Below, in pieces: positions 6,363 to 19,433 of a DNA stretch of 24,000 nt (the first letter of the stretch is position 1; each line of letters opens with the position of its first letter). The notes beneath the pieces were generated by a model. That model saw only the letters and a program-made list of their open reading frames with translations, made no database searches and had not been told where the DNA came from. Location: assembly GCA_036705045.1 (NCBI GenBank), contig JAUBTR010000001.1; one strand, 5' to 3'. Origin of the DNA: Microcoleus sp. BR0-C5 (GTDB lineage: Bacteria; Cyanobacteriota; Cyanobacteriia; Cyanobacteriales; Microcoleaceae). A program made the translations under genes and the position numbers.

Positions 6363-7637
6363 TCATCTTGGTGGGCGACGGTTACGCAAAAACTCAGGAA
6401 TATCCAATCCCAAATCCTGGGGCGGTTTCGCTTTCGGATCGGGTGTCTGTTGAGCAGGAGTCGTCGGCGCAGTTGCAGCCCGCCAAGGAGCATTAACATT
6501 TTGCGTCCGCCCCTGAGGCGGAGGCGACGGAACTTCTCCCGAAAAACCAGTAGCGATCACAGTAATCTTAATTTCGCCCTGAAGCCGCTCGTCAATCACC
6601 GCTCCAAAAATAATATTGGCATTCGGATCGACAACCTCGTAAATCGTCTCAGCCGCCGCATTCACCTCGTGCAGAGTCATGTCAGTACCGCCCGTGATGT
6701 TAAACACCACACCTCTAGCGCCCTCAATAGACGAAGCTTCCAGCAGAGGCGAAGAAATAGCCTGCATCGCAGCCTCCCTAGCCCGCGACTTGCCAGAACC
6801 CACGCCGATGCCCATCAAAGCCGAGCCCGCATCCGCCATTACTGCCCGCACGTCAGCAAAGTCAACATTCACCAAACCGGGAATAGTAATAATGTCAGAA
6901 ATACCCTGAACCCCTTGGCGCAGGATATCATCAGCAACTCGAAAAGCCTCTTGTACCGGCATTTGTTCCGAAATCACAGACAGCAGCTTGTCGTTAGGAA
7001 TTACGATCAGCGTATCCACCCGCGTTTGCAAAGCTGCAATCCCTTCCTCAGCTTGGCTGGTGCGCCGCCGTCCCTCAAACGTAAAAGGCCGCGTTACTAT
7101 GCCCACAGTCAAGGCGCCCATTTCCTTAGCCACCTCAGCCACGATCGGAGCCGCGCCCGTGCCCGTACCGCCGCCCATGCCGGCTGTGATAAATACCAAA
7201 TCCGCATGATTCAGAGCATTAGCAACCTCATCGCGAGATTCCTCCGCAGCCTTTTGACCGATCGCCGGATTGCCCCCCGCCCCCAAACCCCGCGTCAACT
7301 TCTGTCCGACTTGCAAGCGTTTCGGAGCATTTGAAAGAACCAGAGCTTGGGAATCTGTATTCACGCACCAAAACTCGACACCAGAAACCTCGCTAGCAAT
7401 CATCCGGTTAACGGCGTTGCCCCCACCGCCGCCGACGCCAATTACTTTGATTTTGGCAGCACTGCTGGGCATTATGTCTTTGGGATTGACCATAGGATCG
7501 ATATCAATACTATCTACATTTACATAACCAGACTTGCGTCTAAAGGGATTGGCGGAATCTGCCGCCACCGGAAAATTTTTTACTTCTTCCGAAGGGGGAC
7601 TGTCTTGGTCAGACCCCTGTCTATTATTAAGCTTCAT
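6363..7637 (-). CDS. ftsZ: Cell division protein FtsZ
   Basis: 424 aa. [52 protein letters not shown] and a C-terminal DIPEFLRNR peptide. The N-terminal extension is of the cyanobacterial type. Confidence 0.97.
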
Positions 7638-7959: not shown

Positions 7960-9256
7960 CTGTTGACAGAGAATCAATTCTGGGCGCGAGTGGGTGCGGG
8001 AGTTGAACTCTGCTTTGTCAAACTTACCCAAACTTTGCTAAAGCCACCTTTAGCCGCAATTCGGAGTTGACTTCCTGCGCTGTTGGGTGGTCGGCCATCC
8101 CAAGATAAGCAGGCTATCCCCCAATAGCCTTGGGTTCCCAATTTAAAATATTTAAACTGGCATTGAGATCGCGATCTATTGAGGAGCCACAAGCAGGACA
8201 ATCATAAGTCCGAACGCTTAGTGGCATATCTTTTTTATGCCCGCAATTCGCACAAGTCTTAGAACTGGGGAACCATCGATCCACCAGCACTAAATTCGCT
8301 CCATACATTTTGCACTTATAATTTAGCTGCCGCCTGAATTCGTAAAACCCTAAGTCGGATATTGCCCCAGCCAACTTGTGATTTGCCATTATTCCGCTTA
8401 CGTTCAAGTCTTCTATATTGATTGACTTGAAAGTTTTAGCTAAATAAGTCGTTAACTTTTGAAGGAAATCTTTGCGAATGCAAGCTATTCGTGCGTGAAG
8501 TCTGCCGAGCTTGTTGTAAGTTTTGCGCTGATTGTTTGAGGCTTTTATTTGTCTTGATGCCTTGCGCTGCAACCGTGCAAGCTTGGTTTTCGCTTGCTTT
8601 AATGGCTTTGGTGCATCAAACACTTGACTGTTTGACAGGGTAGCAAAATATTTAATACCCACGTCAATCCCTACAGAGCTTTCGGGTTGTTGAATTGGTA
8701 AAAGTTCCGCATCAACACAGAAAGAGACGAACCAGCGATTTCCTTCTTGTGAAATGGTAAAAGTTTGAGAGACAAAACCGCATTCCAGTGGCTCGTGAAG
8801 TCGAAAAGTTCCCAGCGTGGGAATCTTAATGGTGTTGCCAGCAGTTAGTAAAACTTTTCCATTAGACGAATCAACCGTGAATGATTGCCCATCCCGGCGG
8901 CTGGCAAATTTCGGATGATCGGCTTTTCCCAAGCGATACCGACTGAACGCATCTTTCAAGTCTATCAAAGCGTTTTGGTAAACTCGACTGGACAACTGGT
9001 TCATCCAAGCGCATTCAGGTTGTTTCTTGACGTGGTGGGTGAGAACTTTCTTGACTTCGTTGATGACCTTTGAGTCTGAAAAATTGCCCTCACCGTACAT
9101 TTGGACTCGCAAGCTCAATCCCATGTTAAATACTACACGCCGGAATCCTGCGTGTTTTGCCATCAAGGTTGCTTCCCTATTATTCAATTTGAGCGCTCGC
9201 TTGACGGCAAACATGGAACTTCCTCTCAACAATCAACTTTAGATAAGTTTAGCAAA
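7960..9256 (-). mobile_element. TnpB-only IS200/IS605-family element (boundaries approximate) between ftsQ and ftsZ
   Basis: tnpB plus about 150 bp of non-coding tail downstream of its stop. That tail is where the right end and omega RNA scaffold are expected by analogy to characterised TnpB elements. No tnpA is present. The left boundary must lie within 42 bp of the ftsQ stop. The ends were not determined. Confidence 0.55.
8114..9214 (-). CDS. tnpB: TnpB (OrfB) RNA-guided endonuclease, apparently intact
   Basis: RuvC triad contexts GIDVGIKYF, INIEDLNVSG and DRDLNASLNI, with zinc finger CANCGH...CPACG. The ORF-track start at 9232 is a TTG directly after a stop. ATG 9214 (MFAVKRALKLN) has GAGAGGAAG 5-13 nt upstream. 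Confidence 0.9.
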   Translation of the reverse strand: MFAVKRALKLNNREATLMAKHAGFRRVVFNMGLSLRVQMYGEGNFSDSKVINEVKKVLTHHVKKQPECAWMNQLSSRVYQNALIDLKDAFSRYRLGKADHPKFASRRDGQSFTVDSSNGKVLLTAGNTIKIPTLGTFRLHEPLECGFVSQTFTISQEGNRWFVSFCVDAELLPIQQPESSVGIDVGIKYFATLSNSQVFDAPKPLKQAKTKLARLQRKASRQIKASNNQRKTYNKLGRLHARIACIRKDFLQKLTTYLAKTFKSINIEDLNVSGIMANHKLAGAISDLGFYEFRRQLNYKCKMYGANLVLVDRWFPSSKTCANCGHKKDMPLSVRTYDCPACGSSIDRDLNASLNILNWEPKAIGG

Positions 9257-10144
9257 CTATTTAGCAATTAAGTCCGACTCCAAACTGCCGGGGAGTTCTG
9301 GCAAATGGACGATCGGCGAAGCAGGATTTTTCAAGTCAATGTAGGCTATGAGGCTTGAATCTATCTGTTTTGGCAATTGTCGCATTCGGTCTAAAACCTT
9401 AAGTTGCTCCGCAGTCTTGGAACTGTACGGCCCTAAGTGTACGGTACCGATCTCTGTTTTCAAGATCAAGTTGTTCGGGTTTTGCCAATTAATCTCAAAC
9501 ACTTTCACCGTCAAGCCGCTGAGTCCTTGGTAAAACTTCGGCCAAGAGGCGCGATACTGTTCCAAAGGCCCGATGACTTTTAAAGTGGGCAAAGAACGCT
9601 GAGGCTGCGTTCCCGGAATGCTGCCTGGCCCGATCGAACTATTCTGCGATCGTACAGCAGTATAACTATCCGACGGCATCCAACCTCCGCGAGCGTCCAG
9701 CCACCCCACTTTTTCCTTGTCACTGTTCGATCTCAACACCGCCGTCGGCTGCGCCACCGCCACCGGCAGCCGTTCTGCCACTTCTATAGTCAAACTCGGC
9801 GGAAACAAGTTACGAGTCACCTTCGCTTTAGCGATGGGTCCCGTTGACTCCAGCTTTTGGGCCAGCGCCTGCGGTTGAATCCCCCACAGCGACTGCGGGT
9901 AAGACAGCGGCACCAAAGACCGCACCGCCTTATCCGATAGCCACTGATTGCCCTCCACCTTCACTTGTTCCGATCGGGCAATCAACCAAGCCGGCTGCCC
10001 AATCCACCACAGCAAACCTCCGGCGATCGCGCTCGCTGCCAGCATTTGCCACACAACAGCCGCCAATCGAGCGCGACGGAGCTGCCGCAACTTTTGGCGT
10101 CTGCGCCCTAACTCTGTTTGAGAAACCGCTCCAAAACTAGCCAT
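9257..10144 (-). CDS. ftsQ: Cell division protein FtsQ/DivIB
   Basis: 295 aa. A basic N-terminus is followed by one TM helix (AAVVWQMLAASAIAGGLLWWI). A POTRA-like segment follows (VKVEGNQWLSDKAVRSLV...LTIEVAERLPVA). The gene sits upstream of ftsZ on the same strand. Confidence 0.8.
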   Translation of the reverse strand: MASFGAVSQTELGRRRQKLRQLRRARLAAVVWQMLAASAIAGGLLWWIGQPAWLIARSEQVKVEGNQWLSDKAVRSLVPLSYPQSLWGIQPQALAQKLESTGPIAKAKVTRNLFPPSLTIEVAERLPVAVAQPTAVLRSNSDKEKVGWLDARGGWMPSDSYTAVRSQNSSIGPGSIPGTQPQRSLPTLKVIGPLEQYRASWPKFYQGLSGLTVKVFEINWQNPNNLILKTEIGTVHLGPYSSKTAEQLKVLDRMRQLPKQIDSSLIAYIDLKNPASPIVHLPELPGSLESDLIAK

Positions 10145-11813: not shown

Positions 11814-11925
11814 TTGGGATTTTTGAGATAGCTTTGTGACTCTAAGAACCCTTAACCACGAAGGACTTAGAAAGTATTTAACTGAAAACTCATCGCTCAC
11901 ATATCCGAAATCTTACCATCCAATA

Positions 11926-11965
11926 CAGAAATCAGTCAGCGGTTTTTGCCACTGGCTGATTTCTG
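11926..11965 (+). other. 17-bp-arm imperfect hairpin downstream of the 443-aa gene
   Basis: CAGAAATCAGTCAGCGG, loop TTTTTG, then CCACTGGCTGATTTCTG (2 mismatches, one of them a G-U). No T-tract follows, so a terminator role is uncertain. Confidence 0.35.
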
Positions 11966-12384
11966 TTGAATGCTGGCTATAGGCGGTGAATGTTATTGCC
12001 GTGTAAAACTTTGCAGCCACTAAGGACTTTGCCCACTCTCAACTCTGATATCTGCAATGTCAGACCCCCTATGTCTGTTTTTTACCTGTTGCTCTTAATT
12101 TCAACTAATCCTATCCCAGAGGACATTTTTTTTGCGGTTGTGTTAAATGCCTGCTACAGATAAAGCGGACTTGTTTACTAATAGCTAGCCGTCGGTATGA
12201 TCGTGAACTTAGCGGTTGGCTATTTATGATCGGTAGTCCTTCTATATATAGCTGAATCAAAAAATCTAAGGGGACATTAAATTTTTATTGGGAAGTCTAG
12301 CATTCTCTGAGATTGAGAGGTATGATATCTTTACATTAGCTCTAATAACTATGTAAGTATTGATAGAAGAAGTACGGAAAACTA

Positions 12385-12447
12385 CGTATTTATACAGAGA
12401 GAAAGCGCCCAACAGAGACGGGTATCTCTGTAGAAATACGCTTTTTG
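12385..12447 (+). terminator. Terminator- or attenuator-like hairpin about 50 nt upstream of the giant ORF
   Basis: CGTATTTATACAGAGA (12385-12400) pairs with TCTCTGTAGAAATACG (12425-12440) at 15 of 16 positions, followed directly by CTTTTTG. A second ACAGAGA at 12412-18 can pair with the same TCTCTGT, giving alternative folds. Confidence 0.4.
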
Positions 12448-12497
12448 TCAGGAGTGGCGAGGGTTAGGTAATTGATTTATGCAAAAGAGGTGCACCC

Positions 12498-15400
12498 ATG
12501 ACCGATCTAATTAAGGTACAAGAAACTGCCAACTACAACGAGCGATCGCTCAAAACTCTGGTCAGGTCCATCACAATGTCTCAACACCAATTCTCGCTAA
12601 TTTTGGTGCGCTGCAACTACGAGCAGTTGCGGCAACAAATAGCGCAGCGGCTGCGAGAAGTGTCCCCAGTTCCAATTCAAGATCTCGTCCTGCCACCTTC
12701 AGTTAAAACCCTCTACACTACTCTGCTCTCAAGCACTTTCCACGAGGGGTACTCGCCTGTCGGTGCCGCCTCGGCTTTGATGGTATTCGGTTTAGAAACA
12801 GTAGTAGCGATCGACGAACTGATGGCTTCTACCAATCAAGTGCGAGACGAATTTCGCAAAAATTTTTCCTGCCCAGTGATTTTGTGGGTAACAGATGACA
12901 TCGTAACCAAAATGATTCGTCTGGCCCCGGATTTCAAAAGTTGGGCCGCCGCCACAATTAAATTTGAAATGGGCGTTGACGAATTAATTAATTTCCTCGC
13001 TAGGCGGGCCGATACTATATTTAAAATAGGCGAACTCAATCAAGAACTCGCCAGTAGCAACGTCAGCACCATCGCTAATTGTGAGACCTGCGAAACCCAG
13101 TGCGAAAAACGCGGCCTGGAGCGCGAAATCAGCCCTGGAGAACGCTTTCTAACTTTTAACTCAGAGCCTCAAAACCGACGACAATCAGATATCCACTCGT
13201 ATTCGCCGTTGAGTCCCGGCAATACCTTCGATTTGGCGATCGGCTCTTTGCCACGCCGAGAACTAGAATTAGCTTTAAGAGATTTACAAAATCGCGGTGA
13301 AGAATTAGAACCCGCCCTCAAAGCCAGCCTGCAATTCGTTCTCGGTCGAGATTACTATGTCAGCGACCAAACCGAAACTGCCTTAATTCACTACCAAGAA
13401 AGTTTAGTATTTTGGCAGCAGAAAACGGGCCACTGGGAACTGGAAAAGTTGGAACATTCCGAAAACCCAGAAACCTTCTCCTCCTTGTCGAATCCTGTCC
13501 CCAAAATTTTATTTTTAGAGAGAGAAGGCATAGTGCTGTTTCACATAGCCCTGTGTCACCGCTTGCAAGCAGCCAGAAATCCGGTAGCCAACCGCCACCA
13601 CTGGGAACAAGCTTGGATTTGCCTCGAACAATCTAGAAACGCTTTCTCTCTTGCATCACGCCTCGAATTGGTAGCTGAGGTGACAGCACACCTCGGAGAA
13701 GTGCTGCAGCGCCTGAAAGCTTGGGGAGAGTTGCAAGCTTTAGCTGAAAATTCTTTGCAGTTGCACTTCACTTACGGTACTCCCAGCCAACTAGCTCAAG
13801 ATTACGGCTTTTTGGCTGAAGTTGCCCTGCAAGAGTCGAGGTGGAGTCAAGCCCGCCAGCTAGCCGAGTTGGCTTTGGCGATTTTGGATCAAACGCCTAA
13901 TGATTTGAGATTGCTGATTGAAGATTTGAGATTGGGGTTTGAGGGAAATTATCCAGAATTTGTGGGCCCTAACGAGTCAAGTAACGAACTTAAATCTAAA
14001 ATCCAACATCCCAAATCCGACAGGAGTTCGTATCTTTTACTTTTAGCCCGCAGTTTGCGGCAGCTAGGCCAGTGGGAAGCGGCGGTTCATTCTTTGGAGT
14101 TGGCTCAATCTCAAAGCGAGCCGAAGTACGACCCCCGACTTTACATCGATATTTTGACGGAATTGCAAGCGGTTTATTTCGAGCAGGGAGAGTATCTTAA
14201 AGCGTTTCGGATTAAAAAAACCCAGCGTTCGATCGAATATCAATACGGATTTAGAGCTTTTATCGGAGCCAGCCAATTGCAGCAGCAGCGCCAAGCGGTC
14301 AATCCTTCAGGTCCCTCAGCTCAAAACCAAGCTGCCCTCGCAGCGTCCATGACAGCTTACTCGCGCCAAACAGATATCAATAGCTTGCTAGAAAGAATTA
14401 GCAGGGACGACCATAAATTAACTATTATTCACGGGCCCAGCGGAGTCGGGAAAAGTTCTCTAGTCAATGCCGGCTTAGTACCAGCTTTGAAAAATATTAC
14501 TCCGGGCGCGCGCGATACATTGCCCGTATTAGTCAAAGTTTACACTGACTGGCTGGTGGAGTTAGAAAATGCTTTGAACAGCGCACTGTACGACAAACAA
14601 GCCGAAGAGGAAAGTAAATTAATCTCGAAAGGACTACAGGAAATCCACAAAAAAAGTTGCTCGGTTATTCCTGCTCGCAGCTCGGAAGTCTCTTCTTTTA
14701 TTATAGAACAGTTGCGCGAAAATGCCACAAATAATTTGTTAACTGTGCTGATTTTCGATCAATTTGAAGAGTTTTTCTTTGTTTCGACTTCTGTGGCACA
14801 AAGACAACTTTTTTATAATTTTTTGCGTTTGTTTTTGAACTTGCCTTATGTCAAGATAATTCTGTGCTTGCGCGAAGATTATTTGCACTACTTACTAGAT
14901 TGCGATCGCTTCCCAAATCTTGACGCTATTAACAATAATATTCTCGACAAAAGCATCCGCTACCAACTGCGGAGTTTTTCTATCAAAGACGCGCGGGCTG
15001 TCATTGGACACTTAACAGAACGGGCGGAATTTTATTTAGAGCCGGCACTGATCGATGCCTTCGTAGAAGATTTAGCAGACGAACTGCAAGAAGTCCGACC
15101 AATCGAATTGCAGGTAGTAGGAGCGCAACTGCAAGAAGAAGGTATTACCAGTCTAGCACAATACCAGCAATTGGGGGACAATCCCAAAGCGGAATTAGTG
15201 AAACGCTCGCTCGAAAGAGTCATCTCTGACTGCGGGCCCGTTAACGAAGACGCAGCTTGGAAAATCTTGTTTTCCCTAACAGATGAAAGAGGCGTTCGAC
15301 TGATAAAAACCAAACACGAACTCTCGTTAGTTACAGGTCAGCAGCCGGCCGATGCCCGCGAAACCGAATTATCGGCGATCGGCAGAAACAGAATTTCCCT

Positions 15401-17972
15401 ACCGCGACAGTTCGCTGCATACCCTGAAAGCCGACCTAAGAAAACCGACAACCTAGACTTAATTTTAGACATTTTAGTTGGTCACGGTTTGCTATTTCTG
15501 CTACGGGAAGCGCCCGAAGACCGCTATCAATTGGTACACGACTATTTAGTGCGACCTATCCGCCAAAGATTCGGCTTAGAAGCCAGACTGCACAAAGCAG
15601 AAGCAGACAAAAAAATGAGTCAAGCACAGCTCTACCGAGCCAATACTTTTCTCAAACAACTGCTGGGATTAGCAGTGATCGGCGTCATGCTGCTAACCAG
15701 TTCCACCATCGCCGCCGTAAATTTTTGGTGGCGGGCTGTGGGTCAAAAACAGCTAGCTGTCGCTCAAACTCAGCGAGCCGAAATCAGTACCCTGACAGCC
15801 GCTTCGGAAGCACTTTATTTCTCAAACAACAAATTTGACGCCATGATGGAAAGTTTGAGAGCTGGTAAAAAGTGGAAACAGATCGAACACTCCCAACAAA
15901 TGTATACTCTTAAAGATACCGAAATTCTGATTTCTGCCGCCCTCCAGCAGGCAGTTTATGGAGTCAAAGAACGCAACCGCTTGGAAGGACACGGTGATGT
16001 AGTTTGGGGTCTTAGCTTCAGTCCAGACGGCGAAACAATAGCTTCTTCCAGTGTAGATAAAACCGTCAAACTTTGGCGGCGCGACGGCAGTTTGCTGGCA
16101 ACTTTCAAAGACCACACTAACAGTGTCTCCTCTGTCGCGTTCAGTCCCGATAACAAAACCATAGCCTCGGCAAGTTTAGATAAAACTGTCAAAATTTGGC
16201 AAACTGACGGCAGTTTGCTGGCTACTTTCAAAGGCCATACTAATAGCGTTACCAGCGTTGCTTTTAGTTCGGACGGTCAAACGCTCGCCACTGGATCTAC
16301 AGACAAAACTATCAAACTTTGGAAAACCGATGGCACGCTGCTGCGAACGATCGAACAATTTGCTCCCGTAAATTGGCTAAGCTTCAGCCGCGACGGCAAA
16401 ATAATAGCTGTGGCGAGCGATGACGGTACTGTGAAACTGTGGAGTTCTGACGGTAAGTTAATCGCTAATTTGTGGCACAGCGAAAACAGACAACCCTCGA
16501 AAATTTACACCGTCAGTTTCTCCCCCGATGGTGAAACGATCGCCAGTGCGGGTGAAGATAAAACGGTGAAAATCTGGAGCCTCGCTGCACTCAAACACCC
16601 AGCAACAGAAAATTCAACACAAGCAAAAAAAGGTGAACTGCTAACAACTTTGCGGGGACACAGCAAGTGGGTATTTGGTGTCAGTTTCTCCCCCGATGGT
16701 CAAACACTTGCTTCGGGAAGTGCAGACGGGACTGTCAAACTCTGGAGTCTTGCTGGTGTTGGCGACAAACGCCCAACCGATGCTAGCAACATTAAACCAG
16801 AGAGTCGCTTACTGAGAACTTTTGAGGGACACGCCGATCGAGTTACTCAGGTGAGTTTTAGCCCGGAAGGCAAAACCTTGGCTTCGGCAAGTTTTGACAA
16901 AACTATCAGGCTGTGGCGACTCGATGACGTGCCGCTCAAAACCCTCGACGGACACCAAAACCGGGTGCAAGGCGTGAGTTTTAGCCCCGACGGCCAAAGG
17001 CTGGCTTCTGCTTCTACGGACAACACTATCAAACTCTGGAGCCGCACGGGGGTTTTGCTGGAAACCTTGGAAGGACACACTCAGAGAGTCGCCAGCGTCA
17101 GTTTCAGCCCCGACGGCCAGCTACTTGCTTCTGGGAGTTACGACAAAACGGTGAAAGTCTGGAGTTTGACAGAAGATGGCATGAATAATATTCTCCCTTG
17201 TCCTTCGGCTCCCCTATTCCCGTGTTCGCCTTCTGTGCTGTTCACTATCGACGGCCACGCCGACAGCGTGATGAGCGTGAGTTTTAGCCCCGACAGCGAG
17301 GTTCTGGCAACGGCTAGCAAGGATAAGACTGTGAAACTCTGGACTAGAAACGGCAGGTTGATTAAGACTTTGACGGGACACACTGGCTGGGTAACTGGGG
17401 TGACTTTCAGTCCCGACGGCTCGATGCTGGCTTCTGCAAGCGATGATGGTACTCTCAAACTCTGGAATCGGGACGGTCGTTTGCTAAGAACGTTTGAAGG
17501 AGCTCACAACAGTTTTGTGTTGGGGGTTGCTTTTAGCCCTGATGGCAAAATGCTGGCTTCGGCTGGTTACGACAATTCGGTGAAATTGTGGAAGGTAGAT
17601 GGGACTTTGGTGGCGACGCTGCTGAAGGGTTCTAGCGACAGCGTGACTAGCGTTGCTTTTAGCCCGGATGGTTTGTTGGTTGCTTCGGGTAGTTACGATC
17701 ATAAGGTGAAACTGTGGAGCCGCAGCGGGACTTTGCTGAAAACTTTGACGGGTCACAAGGATAGCGTGATGAGTGTGAGTTTTAGCCCGGATGGGAAGGT
17801 TCTGGCTTCTGCTGGCCGGGATAATCGGGTGATTTTGTGGAATTTGGATCTTGATGATTTGCTGGTCAGGGGCTGTGACTGGGTGGGAGATTATCTGAGA
17901 ACTAATCCTAATGTGAGCGATCGCGATCGGCTTCTCTGTGAGGGGGTTGGGGCAAAACCAAATCGATTTTAG
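12498..17972 (+). CDS. Giant STAND protein: unassigned N-terminal module, helical (TPR-like) repeats, nSTAND1-like P-loop NTPase, one hydrophobic helix and 14 WD40 repeats
   Basis: 1824 aa with AAGAGG about 8 nt upstream of the ATG. Walker A is IIHGPSGVGKSSLVNAGLVPAL (about aa 646, nt 14433-14459) and Walker B is VLIFDQFEEFF (about nt 14748-14771). Also present are ILCLREDYL, PIELQVVGAQL and a winged-helix-like RYQLVHDYLVRPI. The hydrophobic helix is LLGLAVIGVMLLTSSTIAAVNFWW (about 15661-15735). Fourteen GH..V..V.FSPDG..LAS.S.D.TVKLW units span 15981 to about 17850, followed by the typical tail LDLDDLLVRGCDWVGDYL. Confidence 0.9.
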   Translation: MTDLIKVQETANYNERSLKTLVRSITMSQHQFSLILVRCNYEQLRQQIAQRLREVSPVPIQDLVLPPSVKTLYTTLLSSTFHEGYSPVGAASALMVFGLETVVAIDELMASTNQVRDEFRKNFSCPVILWVTDDIVTKMIRLAPDFKSWAAATIKFEMGVDELINFLARRADTIFKIGELNQELASSNVSTIANCETCETQCEKRGLEREISPGERFLTFNSEPQNRRQSDIHSYSPLSPGNTFDLAIGSLPRRELELALRDLQNRGEELEPALKASLQFVLGRDYYVSDQTETALIHYQESLVFWQQKTGHWELEKLEHSENPETFSSLSNPVPKILFLEREGIVLFHIALCHRLQAARNPVANRHHWEQAWICLEQSRNAFSLASRLELVAEVTAHLGEVLQRLKAWGELQALAENSLQLHFTYGTPSQLAQDYGFLAEVALQESRWSQARQLAELALAILDQTPNDLRLLIEDLRLGFEGNYPEFVGPNESSNELKSKIQHPKSDRSSYLLLLARSLRQLGQWEAAVHSLELAQSQSEPKYDPRLYIDILTELQAVYFEQGEYLKAFRIKKTQRSIEYQYGFRAFIGASQLQQQRQAVNPSGPSAQNQAALAASMTAYSRQTDINSLLERISRDDHKLTIIHGPSGVGKSSLVNAGLVPALKNITPGARDTLPVLVKVYTDWLVELENALNSALYDKQAEEESKLISKGLQEIHKKSCSVIPARSSEVSSFIIEQLRENATNNLLTVLIFDQFEEFFFVSTSVAQRQLFYNFLRLFLNLPYVKIILCLREDYLHYLLDCDRFPNLDAINNNILDKSIRYQLRSFSIKDARAVIGHLTERAEFYLEPALIDAFVEDLADELQEVRPIELQVVGAQLQEEGITSLAQYQQLGDNPKAELVKRSLERVISDCGPVNEDAAWKILFSLTDERGVRLIKTKHELSLVTGQQPADARETELSAIGRNRISLPRQFAAYPESRPKKTDNLDLILDILVGHGLLFLLREAPEDRYQLVHDYLVRPIRQRFGLEARLHKAEADKKMSQAQLYRANTFLKQLLGLAVIGVMLLTSSTIAAVNFWWRAVGQKQLAVAQTQRAEISTLTAASEALYFSNNKFDAMMESLRAGKKWKQIEHSQQMYTLKDTEILISAALQQAVYGVKERNRLEGHGDVVWGLSFSPDGETIASSSVDKTVKLWRRDGSLLATFKDHTNSVSSVAFSPDNKTIASASLDKTVKIWQTDGSLLATFKGHTNSVTSVAFSSDGQTLATGSTDKTIKLWKTDGTLLRTIEQFAPVNWLSFSRDGKIIAVASDDGTVKLWSSDGKLIANLWHSENRQPSKIYTVSFSPDGETIASAGEDKTVKIWSLAALKHPATENSTQAKKGELLTTLRGHSKWVFGVSFSPDGQTLASGSADGTVKLWSLAGVGDKRPTDASNIKPESRLLRTFEGHADRVTQVSFSPEGKTLASASFDKTIRLWRLDDVPLKTLDGHQNRVQGVSFSPDGQRLASASTDNTIKLWSRTGVLLETLEGHTQRVASVSFSPDGQLLASGSYDKTVKVWSLTEDGMNNILPCPSAPLFPCSPSVLFTIDGHADSVMSVSFSPDSEVLATASKDKTVKLWTRNGRLIKTLTGHTGWVTGVTFSPDGSMLASASDDGTLKLWNRDGRLLRTFEGAHNSFVLGVAFSPDGKMLASAGYDNSVKLWKVDGTLVATLLKGSSDSVTSVAFSPDGLLVASGSYDHKVKLWSRSGTLLKTLTGHKDSVMSVSFSPDGKVLASAGRDNRVILWNLDLDDLLVRGCDWVGDYLRTNPNVSDRDRLLCEGVGAKPNRF

Positions 17973-18143: not shown

Positions 18144-18298
18144 TCTTAAGGCTTCTAATAAGCTCCCTTAGAGCATCTGATTTCGATATCCCGGGTGATT
18201 CGCAGTAAGATTCTAGCTTCTCAAACTATTCATCATTCAGCCTAAAAAATACGCTTTCTTTTATGGAAAAGTATATCTATATGAGCTACAATAATAGC

Positions 18299-19433
18299 AT
18301 GAAAACCTTGAAGTTTAAGCTATATCAAAGCAAGCGGAATAGACACCTCAAGCGAAGTATCAATGCTGCCGGGGTGATCTACAACCATTGCATTGCACTC
18401 CATAAACGGTACTACCGGATGTGGGGAAAGCATTTGACTTGTGCAAAACTTCAATCGCATATTGCCAAACACAGAAAGCGTAAAGCGTTCTGGCAAACGG
18501 TCGGCTCTCAAGCTGTGCAGGATATCTGCCAACGCATCTCGATCGCCTACCAACTGTTTTTTAAGCATCACAAGAAAGGAGTTAGACCGCCCGGATTCAA
18601 GAAAGTTCGCAAATACAAATCGTTCACTCTCAAGCAAGCTGGCTACAAATTCTTAGGCGGCAATCGAATTAAGATTGGGAATCGCGTTTATCAGTATTGG
18701 AATTCCAGAGAGATAGAGGGGACGGTCAAGACGTTAACCATTAAACGCACGACATTAGGAGAGCTATTTATGGTTGTGGTCGTTGACAGCGTTGAAGAAC
18801 CTGAAACCAAAGTCGAGACGAGTAGAATCGCTGGCTTTGATTGCGGCTTAAAAACGTTTCTCACCTGCTCAGATGGAACGAAAATCGAATCACCGCAATT
18901 TCTGAAACAGTCCCTCAACGCTATTAAGAAAGCAAATCGTCAGCATTCCAAAAAACGGAAAGGCTCAGCGAACCGGGAAAGAGCAAGACTCAATCTAGTT
19001 CGCAAGTACTCCTGACGTAGTGAATCGTCGCTCTGATTGGTTCTGGAAATTGGCTCACGAACTAACTGATAAGTTCGACGTGCTGTGCTTTGAGACGTTG
19101 AATCTAAAAGGAATGCAACGACTTTGGGGACGTAAAATCTCAGACCTTGCATGCGGCGAATTTCTCCAAGTTCTCGAATGGGTTGCCAAGAAAAAAAATA
19201 AGCAGGTGATCTTTATTGATCAGTGGTATCCATCATCGAAGACTTGCAATCATTGTGGACACGTCCTACAAAAGTTGGATGTGAATACGAGAGAATGGCG
19301 ATGTCCGTCCTGTCAGAACGTGAACGACAGAGACGAGAATACAGCTAAGAATAACTTGCTTGTTTTCCTTGGTGGGGCATCAACCGTTAAGTTAGGCGAT
19401 GTTAGACAGGCTAGGCCTGCAATCGCTGTCTGA
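18299..19433 (+). pseudogene. tnpB: TnpB (IS200/IS605 family, unrelated to the first copy) disrupted by a 1-nt frameshift near 19005-19013
   Basis: Two ORFs in different frames (18263/18299-19015 and 19020-19433) together give a full TnpB. It starts MKTLKFKLYQSKRNRHLKR. RuvC contexts are GFDCGLKTF, CFETLNLKGM and DRDENTAKNN, with zinc finger CNHCGH...CPSCQ. Deleting one nt around 19010 restores ...RKYPDVVNRRSDWF. Confidence 0.85.

Follow-up and report, generated by a model that had tools for sequence, protein, structure and literature searches.

A predicted AAA+-like domain without a P-loop at the N-terminus of a giant nSTAND1-WD40 protein of Microcoleus, and its pairing with an ATPase gene

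The DNA examined here, a stretch of 24,000 nucleotides (nt) from contig JAUBTR010000001.1 of Microcoleus sp. BR0-C5 (assembly GCA_036705045.1; "the window" in the following), encodes a giant protein with a domain at its N-terminus, designated N-dom, which belongs to a large orphan domain family of cyanobacteria that was not recognised by any library that was searched. What stays constant is the pair of an ATPase and N-dom, while the part which follows N-dom varies. The most favoured interpretation, to which a probability of about one half is assigned, is that N-dom is a pseudo-AAA+ docking, partner or adaptor domain of the co-encoded ATPase. It is based on the constancy of the pair, an AAA+-like predicted fold, a P-loop that has been lost, and a cluster of conserved polar residues on the face where AAA+ subunits contact each other. 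We infer that N-dom is an adaptor or regulatory module and not an enzymatic effector.

An initial annotation, made from the letters of the window, had assigned the N-terminal 640 or so amino acids (aa) of the giant protein to the slot in which STAND proteins carry their effectors. An unrecognised and conserved domain was indeed present there; no sign of enzymatic or death-related activity was found, N-dom occurred also on proteins without an NTPase module, and its tightest link was to the ATPase gene upstream.

Fold and conservation of the N-terminal region

The N-terminal 640 aa consist of three parts, i.e., N-dom, a disordered spacer and an array of TPRs, and not of one region (Table 1). An AGAGG box is located about 8 nt before the ATG of the giant open reading frame (ORF), and the orthologs share the same start methionine. 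Pfam gave no match with aa 1-200 even at E ≤ 10, and TPR matches alone with aa 200-640 (TPR_12 at aa 396-464, E 1e-10; TPR_2 and TPR_7 weak); no match to aa 1-641 was obtained with the NCBIfam and PADLOC models. As had been stated in the initial annotation, the pattern GxxxxGK[ST] is missing from the N-terminal region; the whole giant protein matches it only once, at aa 646 within its nSTAND1 part. A search of the first 200 aa with a Walker A expression was negative for the window protein and for the best 150 representatives of the family.

A model of N-dom was calculated with AlphaFold2 from an alignment of 64 rows, in which diverse homologs were included; it had a mean predicted local distance difference test (pLDDT) value of 86.7 and a predicted template modelling (pTM) score of 0.79. 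The model shows five strands (b) and six or seven helices (a) in beta-alpha order (a0-b1-a1-b2-a2-b3-a3-b4-a4-b5-a5), namely helix 2-27, strand 33-38, helix 42-55, strand 60-64, helix 72-82, strand 93-97, helices 105-122, strand 126-131, helices 133-148, strand 150-155 and helix 160-184. An alternation of strands and helices had been proposed before for aa 1-175, with the peptides FSLILVRCNY... (aa 32-52), ALMVFGLE... (aa 93-108) and CPVILWVTDDIV (aa 125-136) as examples, and these were found at the places reported; the other peptides quoted, CETCETQCEKRG (aa 195-206, nt 13080-13115), ALIHYQESLVFWQQ (aa 295-308) and YLKAFRIKKTQRS (aa 566-578), could be located as well.

Comparison of the model with the PDB by Foldseek yielded among the top 50 matches almost exclusively AAA+/ASCE cores, with query-based TM-scores (TMq) of 0.45-0.56 and probabilities of 0.9-1.0. 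They included RAD17-RFC (7z6h_K, E 2e-4, TMq 0.54), RFC1, archaeal ORC2/Cdc6, Sec18/NSF, MuB, Skd3, RuvB and TnsC, and also the nucleotide-free AAA+-like proteins Sir3 (3te6), Orc2 and Orc3 (7jpp, 8s0e). In BFVD, an independent library of viral models, the matches were mostly AAA+ ATPases. Since the matches are consistent, it appears fairly safe to regard N-dom as an AAA+/ASCE-type core without a P-loop; this assignment is made at the level of the predicted fold, from the order of the elements along the chain and not from the spatial order of the strands. The earlier proposal of an inactivated P-loop-like or otherwise novel domain is thereby supported structurally, because of the AAA+-like model and the lack of a Walker A motif in the 150 representatives; the predicted core was matched by no Pfam, NCBIfam or PADLOC entry. 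A match to a known adaptor or effector (EAD, Death-like, CHAT or TIR), which would have spoken against that proposal, was not obtained; N-dom is predicted to be an alpha/beta domain and not a helical bundle of the EAD or Death-like kind, and no effector-bearing N-dom protein was found. EACC1, which the literature links to nSTAND1, was rejected as an identity of N-dom, being a mini-domain with a single transmembrane (TM) segment.

Conserved columns were read from two N-dom alignments, one of 15 N-doms and the other of 64 rows, and the canonical AAA+ motif positions were placed on the model by inference. At the place of Walker A, the turn between b1 and a1 consists of C39-N40-Y41 only. The Walker B place after b3 reads ALMVF-GLE, with invariant G98 and E100 and without the aspartate, and the sensor-1 place after b4 is occupied by T132-D133. 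R141, which is at least 90% conserved, is situated towards the end of the helix that follows b4, and in the divergent paralog at C100 of the same genome an arginine is found one residue away. The arginine finger of AAA+ proteins is located near the end of the helix following the sensor-1 strand. The conserved polar residues C39, N40, E100, N113, R116, D133, R141 and D145 are placed at the C-terminal end of b1, b3 or b4 or a short way beyond it; it is at these strand ends that the active site and the subunit interface of AAA+ proteins lie.

At the sequence level, the N-dom profile detected nothing below E 0.08 among PDB sequences. Comparisons with hhalign showed no similarity of N-dom to the upstream ATPase (probability < 1%) or to the alignment of the giant protein's own nSTAND1 module (probability 0.1%). 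On account of these values, N-dom was no longer considered to have arisen by a recent duplication within the protein or as a decayed copy of the neighbouring gene.

In the most distant orthologs, identities were 52-56% for N-dom, 52-57% for nSTAND1 and 41-50% for the TPR array. N-dom is thus under constraint, since its identity is like that of nSTAND1 and above that of the TPR array, and aa 1-175 are not the poorly conserved filler which had been considered as an outcome. The linker (aa 186-245) was predicted to be disordered, with pLDDT values of 30-50 in a second AlphaFold2 run; its identity in orthologs was 7-28% where the flanking domains keep 41-72%, and 7-13% in the most distant ones. 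The Cys/Glu-rich stretch CETCETQCEKRG within it had been pointed out as a noteworthy motif. It is altered already within Microcoleus, and its cysteines are not kept; it should therefore be taken as filler, and a role as metal-binding motif was rejected because of the cysteines not being conserved in close orthologs and the predicted disorder.

The helical repeats which follow had been described as resembling TPRs only loosely. This wording was too cautious: aa 250-585 form an ordinary peptide-binding TPR superhelix of 7-8 repeats according to the model, with about 14 helices in hairpins, most of them with pLDDT > 90, and one disordered insert at about aa 481-505. Membership was indicated by Pfam TPR_12 (42 bits versus a cut-off of 30.1), and the best Foldseek matches of the region were the TPR domains of LGN/Pins and of kinesin light chain (E 4e-7 to 1e-4). 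A second flexible stretch was predicted between the TPR array and the nSTAND1 module. The latter contains a Walker A motif, GPSGVGKS, from aa 646, and a Walker B motif, LIFDQFEE; the WD40 repeats, a double propeller, are the likely sensor or scaffold part.

The N-dom family and its companion ATPase

A profile of 15 N-doms was used to search 1.84 billion representatives, a collection which carries no taxonomy; 2621 cluster representatives were obtained at E ≤ 1e-3, 561 of them at ≤ 1e-30. N-dom is located nearly always at the extreme N-terminus, in proteins of 165 to 2062 aa. Among the best 150 representatives, all that were long enough continued into a TPR region and nSTAND1, most of them then into WD40 repeats, some without. 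One metagenomic representative (P0122, 1193 aa) contained tandem N-doms (aa 12-164 and 165-322), followed by TPRs and nSTAND1.

Three architectures can be distinguished, i.e., a TPR-nSTAND1-TM-WD40 fusion, a TPR-only fusion and a stand-alone form of about 165 aa. The TPR-only clade comprises 834 proteins, from Microcoleus, Nostoc, Anabaena, Calothrix, Nodularia and Pseudanabaena, nearly all labelled "tetratricopeptide repeat protein"; other public labels in the family are "WD40 domain-containing protein", "AAA family ATPase", "nSTAND1 domain-containing NTPase" and "hypothetical protein". Stand-alone N-doms of 154-176 aa were present in more than 100 clusters, on contigs of up to 6.7 Mb, and were found again at 162-206 aa in many genera of a sample of 301 cyanobacterial genomes from 133 genera. 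The possibility that the stand-alone gene of 165 aa might be a pseudogene remnant was rejected, since genes of comparable length are conserved across many genera and genomes and are found on long contigs. The recurrence of the N-terminal module as a separate protein or fused to other partners, proposed earlier as a check for domain shuffling, was thus confirmed; the partners are scaffolds and not effectors. In the other N-dom proteins examined, TPRs or nothing followed N-dom, never a recognisable effector.

In the 301-genome sample N-dom occurred in 78 genomes and 49 genera, with 1-8 copies each. These genomes were concentrated in the order to which the window's genome belongs, and most of the named members are filamentous. 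A cassette with 63-83% identity to the window, together with a cyanobacterial-like ftsQ, was noted in JBLNEP010000100.1, which is labelled "Actinomycetota bacterium MAG69"; because of this combination it is probably a mis-binned cyanobacterial contig. The window's own genome contains five N-dom genes (Table 1), whose domains diverge widely, with identities of 27-54%. The stand-alone gene at C33 follows closely on a PAS/histidine-kinase gene and has a gene for a TM-plus-TPR protein in its vicinity; ORFs of this type, of about 162-176 aa, are kept in many Microcoleus and Tychonema genomes.

The gene upstream of the giant ORF encodes a P-loop ATPase of 443 aa, whose conserved SGGHVRN motif resembles a sensor-2 element. 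Pfam gave weak matches to ATPase_2, KAP_NTPase, AAA_16 and nSTAND5, and PADLOC weak matches alone (PDC-S20, E 1e-4; mad8, E 2.5e-3). A divergent paralog in the same genome (G000:C100:13518-14864) matched the NCBIfam model "P-loop ATPase, Sll1717 family" with E 3e-7 and the model "DS41_1 anti-phage protein" with E 6e-7, both below cut-off, which hints at the wider clade of ATPases in which the partner belongs.

In 75 of 80 related loci, the gene immediately upstream of that for N-dom was the ATPase gene; in four of the five others, the sequence available on the upstream side is shorter than 650 nt. Outside the window's genus, at least 82 of 90 long-ORF N-dom matches were preceded directly, and on the same strand, by an ATPase among the matches listed, as judged from a manual comparison of the two match lists. 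The gaps between the two genes ranged in these pairs from a 13-nt overlap to about 1 kb. In the divergent TPR-only clade, too, the ATPase precedes the N-dom genes in Nodularia and Pseudanabaena (30-34% identity). Two further pairs are present in the own genome, at C205 with a 4-nt gap and an ATPase 55% identical to that of the window, and at C100 with a 4-nt overlap and an ATPase 33% identical. In the window, the spacer between the two genes (11814-12497, 684 nt) contains no ORF longer than 57 aa. Spacers of about 682-690 nt were seen in many Microcoleus loci, and 4 nt or an overlap in paralogous cassettes.

The ATPase profile matched 80 of the 301 genomes, versus 78 for N-dom, and the tallies per family and per genus were essentially equal. 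For 14 pairs, the identity matrices of ATPase and N-dom were correlated with a Mantel r of 0.97, a value reached by none of 5000 permutations. An ATPase gene without an adjoining N-dom gene was noted in the own genome (G000:C174:88719-90095); layouts with a lone ATPase or a lone giant gene recur in related genomes. This ATPase and the giant protein at C49:218104 were 66% and 57% identical, respectively, to the window pair. Both values fit the line of co-divergence, which suggests a pair that has been split in the genome.

Possible functions of the N-terminal domain

If N-dom is the partner of the ATPase, it could pack on the ATPase core in the way in which nucleotide-free AAA+-like subunits pack on active neighbours in clamp loaders and in the origin recognition complex (ORC). 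It might contribute a trans-acting residue, such as R141, or might be clamped or released according to the nucleotide state of the ATPase. Coupling of the small ATPase with the TPR array and, in the giant proteins, with the active nSTAND1 switch, the membrane helix and the WD40 propellers would then run through the flexible linker. The stand-alone proteins of about 165 aa could perhaps compete for, or buffer, the same ATPase interface.

Several points weigh against this interpretation. The TM-scores obtained with Foldseek are moderate (about 0.5, with E values of 1e-4 to 1e-3), and the fold rests on a predicted model and on the consistency of the matches. The descent of N-dom from an NTPase is argued from predicted structure alone, because profile-profile comparison shows no similarity to the ATPase or to nSTAND1. 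A site for ligand binding or catalysis would explain the conserved polar cluster equally well. In the window, 684 nt lie between the ATPase gene and the giant gene, so that co-transcription is no more than a possibility. The stand-alone N-dom genes and the giant paralog at C49:218104-223353 are not beside an ATPase gene. Finally, the Mantel correlation shows integrity of the cassette and not physical contact, since it is a consequence of co-inheritance as a unit and would be expected for any two such genes.

An unlikely alternative, though one with several observations in its favour, is that N-dom acts as a homotypic adaptor in the manner of EADs, with contacts between N-doms joining the stand-alone, TPR-only and STAND-WD40 forms, and that the ATPase acts elsewhere, e.g., on the TPR array. 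EADs occur as one domain on several proteins of a genome and provide homotypic coupling (Kaur et al., PMC7159879). The 1-8 N-dom genes of differing architecture per genome would resemble this multi-copy pattern, the stand-alone copies are conserved away from any ATPase gene, and one protein carries two N-doms in tandem. However, the paralogs in the own genome are only 27-54% identical and each diverges along with an ATPase paralog of its own, which speaks for cognate heterotypic pairs more than for one homotypic network; moreover, EADs described to date are joined to effector domains, of which none was seen here. Quite unlikely, too, would appear a role of N-dom as a client or switch domain that is remodelled by the ATPase, and not as a stable structural subunit, comparable to the pair of chaperone and co-chaperone (MoxR-vWA) in ternary conflict systems; hydrolysis of ATP would here change the conformation of N-dom, by which the remainder of the protein would be set free or activated. 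The genomic logic, a constant NTPase gene beside a constant domain with variable C-terminal modules, is the same as for MoxR-vWA (PMC7159879), and the flexible linker of 60 aa after N-dom would be suitable, but the ATPase matches models of STAND, KAP and ORC type and not MoxR-type unfoldase-like AAA+ proteins, and the compact, confidently predicted fold of N-dom gives no hint of a remodelling substrate. This alternative overlaps with the docking-partner interpretation, and the two cannot be separated by sequence.

Ranked lowest, and considered improbable, is an effector or sensor of a new kind, enzymatic or ligand-binding, in which the former nucleotide pocket would be put to use again. It would occupy the N-terminal slot where STAND proteins usually carry effectors (PMC8195603), the polar cluster of C39, N40, E100, D133 and R141 atop the sheet is invariant or nearly so, and scans with Pfam and PADLOC showed no other candidate effector in the ATPase or the giant gene. 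The low rank follows from four observations. Foldseek searches of PDB and BFVD gave overwhelmingly AAA+ cores and no TIR, SIR2, nuclease, protease or other effector fold; N-dom also heads TPR-only and stand-alone proteins; PADLOC had no match for aa 1-641; and the ortholog group has a fixed place next to ftsQ-ftsZ in several genera instead of lying in a variable island. Upstream of the ATPase, and in divergent orientation, ftsQ and/or ftsZ are located in 72 of 80 related loci (Microcoleus, Kamptonema, Lyngbya, Limnoraphis and Planktothrix), and this fixation is more in keeping with a signalling module that is resident than with a suicide system that is mobile.

With the docking-partner interpretation as a starting point, a more far-reaching and rather doubtful proposal may be made. 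The ATPase of about 445 aa and N-dom could represent a new two-component NTPase switch specific for cyanobacteria, with a composite nucleotide site and a logic like that of MoxR-vWA, which would gate what is assembled as output, either a scaffold of TPRs or an Apaf-1-like nSTAND1-WD40 machine anchored in the membrane; through the ortholog next to ftsQ-ftsZ, the switch would be connected with cell division or with the integrity of the filament, rather than with defence against phages.

Features of the locus and comparison with known systems

The features of the window and the N-dom genes of the genome are compiled in Table 1. A search for a MoxR or vWA gene among the neighbours in the window, which are ftsQ, TnpB, the 443-aa ATPase and the broken TnpB, was negative.

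Table 1. Positions of features in the window (nt) and of N-dom genes elsewhere in the same genome
Feature	Position	Strand	Remarks
ftsZ	6363-7637	-	Beyond ftsQ
TnpB gene	8114-9232		Between ftsQ and ftsZ
ftsQ	9257-10144	-	Divergent from the ATPase-giant pair
P-loop ATPase, 443 aa	10482-11813	+	Walker A GHIGCGKST, Walker B VIVDNLDR, SGGHVRN
Giant ORF, 1824 aa	12498-17972	+	nSTAND1-WD40 protein with N-dom and TPR array ahead; one of five N-dom genes in the genome
N-dom, predicted AAA+-like alpha/beta domain without P-loop	aa 1-180, 12498-13037	+	AlphaFold2, Foldseek, alignment columns
Disordered linker	aa 186-245, 13053-13232	+	Includes Cys/Glu-rich stretch 13080-13115; pLDDT 30-50, low ortholog identity
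TPR superhelix (predicted)	aa ~250-585, 13245-14252	+	Pfam TPR_12, AlphaFold2, Foldseek
Active nSTAND1 NTPase module	aa 621-971, 14358-15410	+	Pfam PF20703, E 1.9e-30
Single hydrophobic helix between NTPase and propellers	aa 1055-1078, 15660-15731	+	Direct reading of the sequence
14 WD40 repeats	aa ~1164-1790, 15987-17867	+	Pfam WD40, E 5.6e-171, 14 stretches
Broken TnpB-like gene, two ORFs (250 aa OrfB_IS605, 137 aa Cas12f1-like_TNB)	18263-19433	+	Directly after the giant gene
Giant N-dom paralog, 1749 aa	C49:218104-223353		Own genome
N-dom paralog, ≥ 940 aa	C205		Own genome
N-dom paralog, 696 aa	C100		Own genome; N-dom 27% identical, then 13 canonical TPRs
Stand-alone N-dom gene, 165 aa	C33:24984-25481		Own genome

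Inactive NTPase modules recur in STAND-based signalling and conflict systems of multicellular bacteria and are poorly understood. The recognition of N-dom unites three architectures, ties them to one dedicated ATPase family and offers a pairing which can be tested. The "missing effector" of the giant Apaf-1-like proteins could be reread as an N-terminus that couples to a second ATPase; if this terminus is a coupling device, the output of the system should lie elsewhere, or the system should be a signalling switch and not a suicide module. In the literature on nSTAND1, EACC1, Sll1717 and inactive AAA+ proteins in cyanobacteria, in which subscription journals were thinly covered, no description of N-dom was found.

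AAA+ cores without a working P-loop are known from clamp-loader subunits of the delta'/Rfc5 type, from Orc2 and Orc3 and from Sir3, and N-dom, by its predicted fold, is like them in this respect; it is also encoded beside an active P-loop ATPase. N-dom differs from them in that no sequence relationship is detectable, no lid domain was recognised after its core, and it is fused to TPR, STAND and WD40 modules; furthermore, its partner ATPase matches models of STAND and KAP type and not those of clamp loaders. Inactive STAND modules, termed iSTAND and iSTAND2, were described in multi-gene NTPase systems of multicellular bacteria by Kaur, Burroughs, Iyer and Aravind (PMC7159879, PMC8195603), and a hetero-toroid or hetero-multimer was proposed there for a pair of an active and an inactive STAND. 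Like N-dom, these modules have eroded NTP-binding motifs and are a constant component of NTPase systems. However, iSTAND systems are defined by a MoxR-vWA pair, and the window contains none; the link of iSTAND to STAND was made by profile searches, while comparison of the N-dom profile with those of nSTAND1 and of the partner ATPase showed no similarity; and N-dom, with about 180 aa, is a core alone, placed ahead of a second and active STAND module in the same polypeptide.

The FtsH-type component of the ternary MoxR-vWA systems is a tandem AAA+ protein with a dead N-terminal copy (PMC7159879, PMC8195603). There, the two copies are both recognisably of FtsH type and adjacent; in the giant protein, the modules are unrelated in sequence, about 400 aa of linker and TPRs are found between them, and the active one is nSTAND1. 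The iSTAND modules, the active-inactive STAND pair and the FtsH-type proteins are thus precedents in kind, and none of them matches N-dom or its context. With the nSTAND1-WD40 or Apaf-1-like STAND proteins, the giant protein has in common the central nSTAND1 NTPase and the C-terminal double WD40 propeller. Where those proteins carry an N-terminal caspase-like, TIR or EAD module, however, the giant protein has the putative pseudo-AAA+ N-dom and a TPR array, together with a dedicated gene for a companion ATPase.

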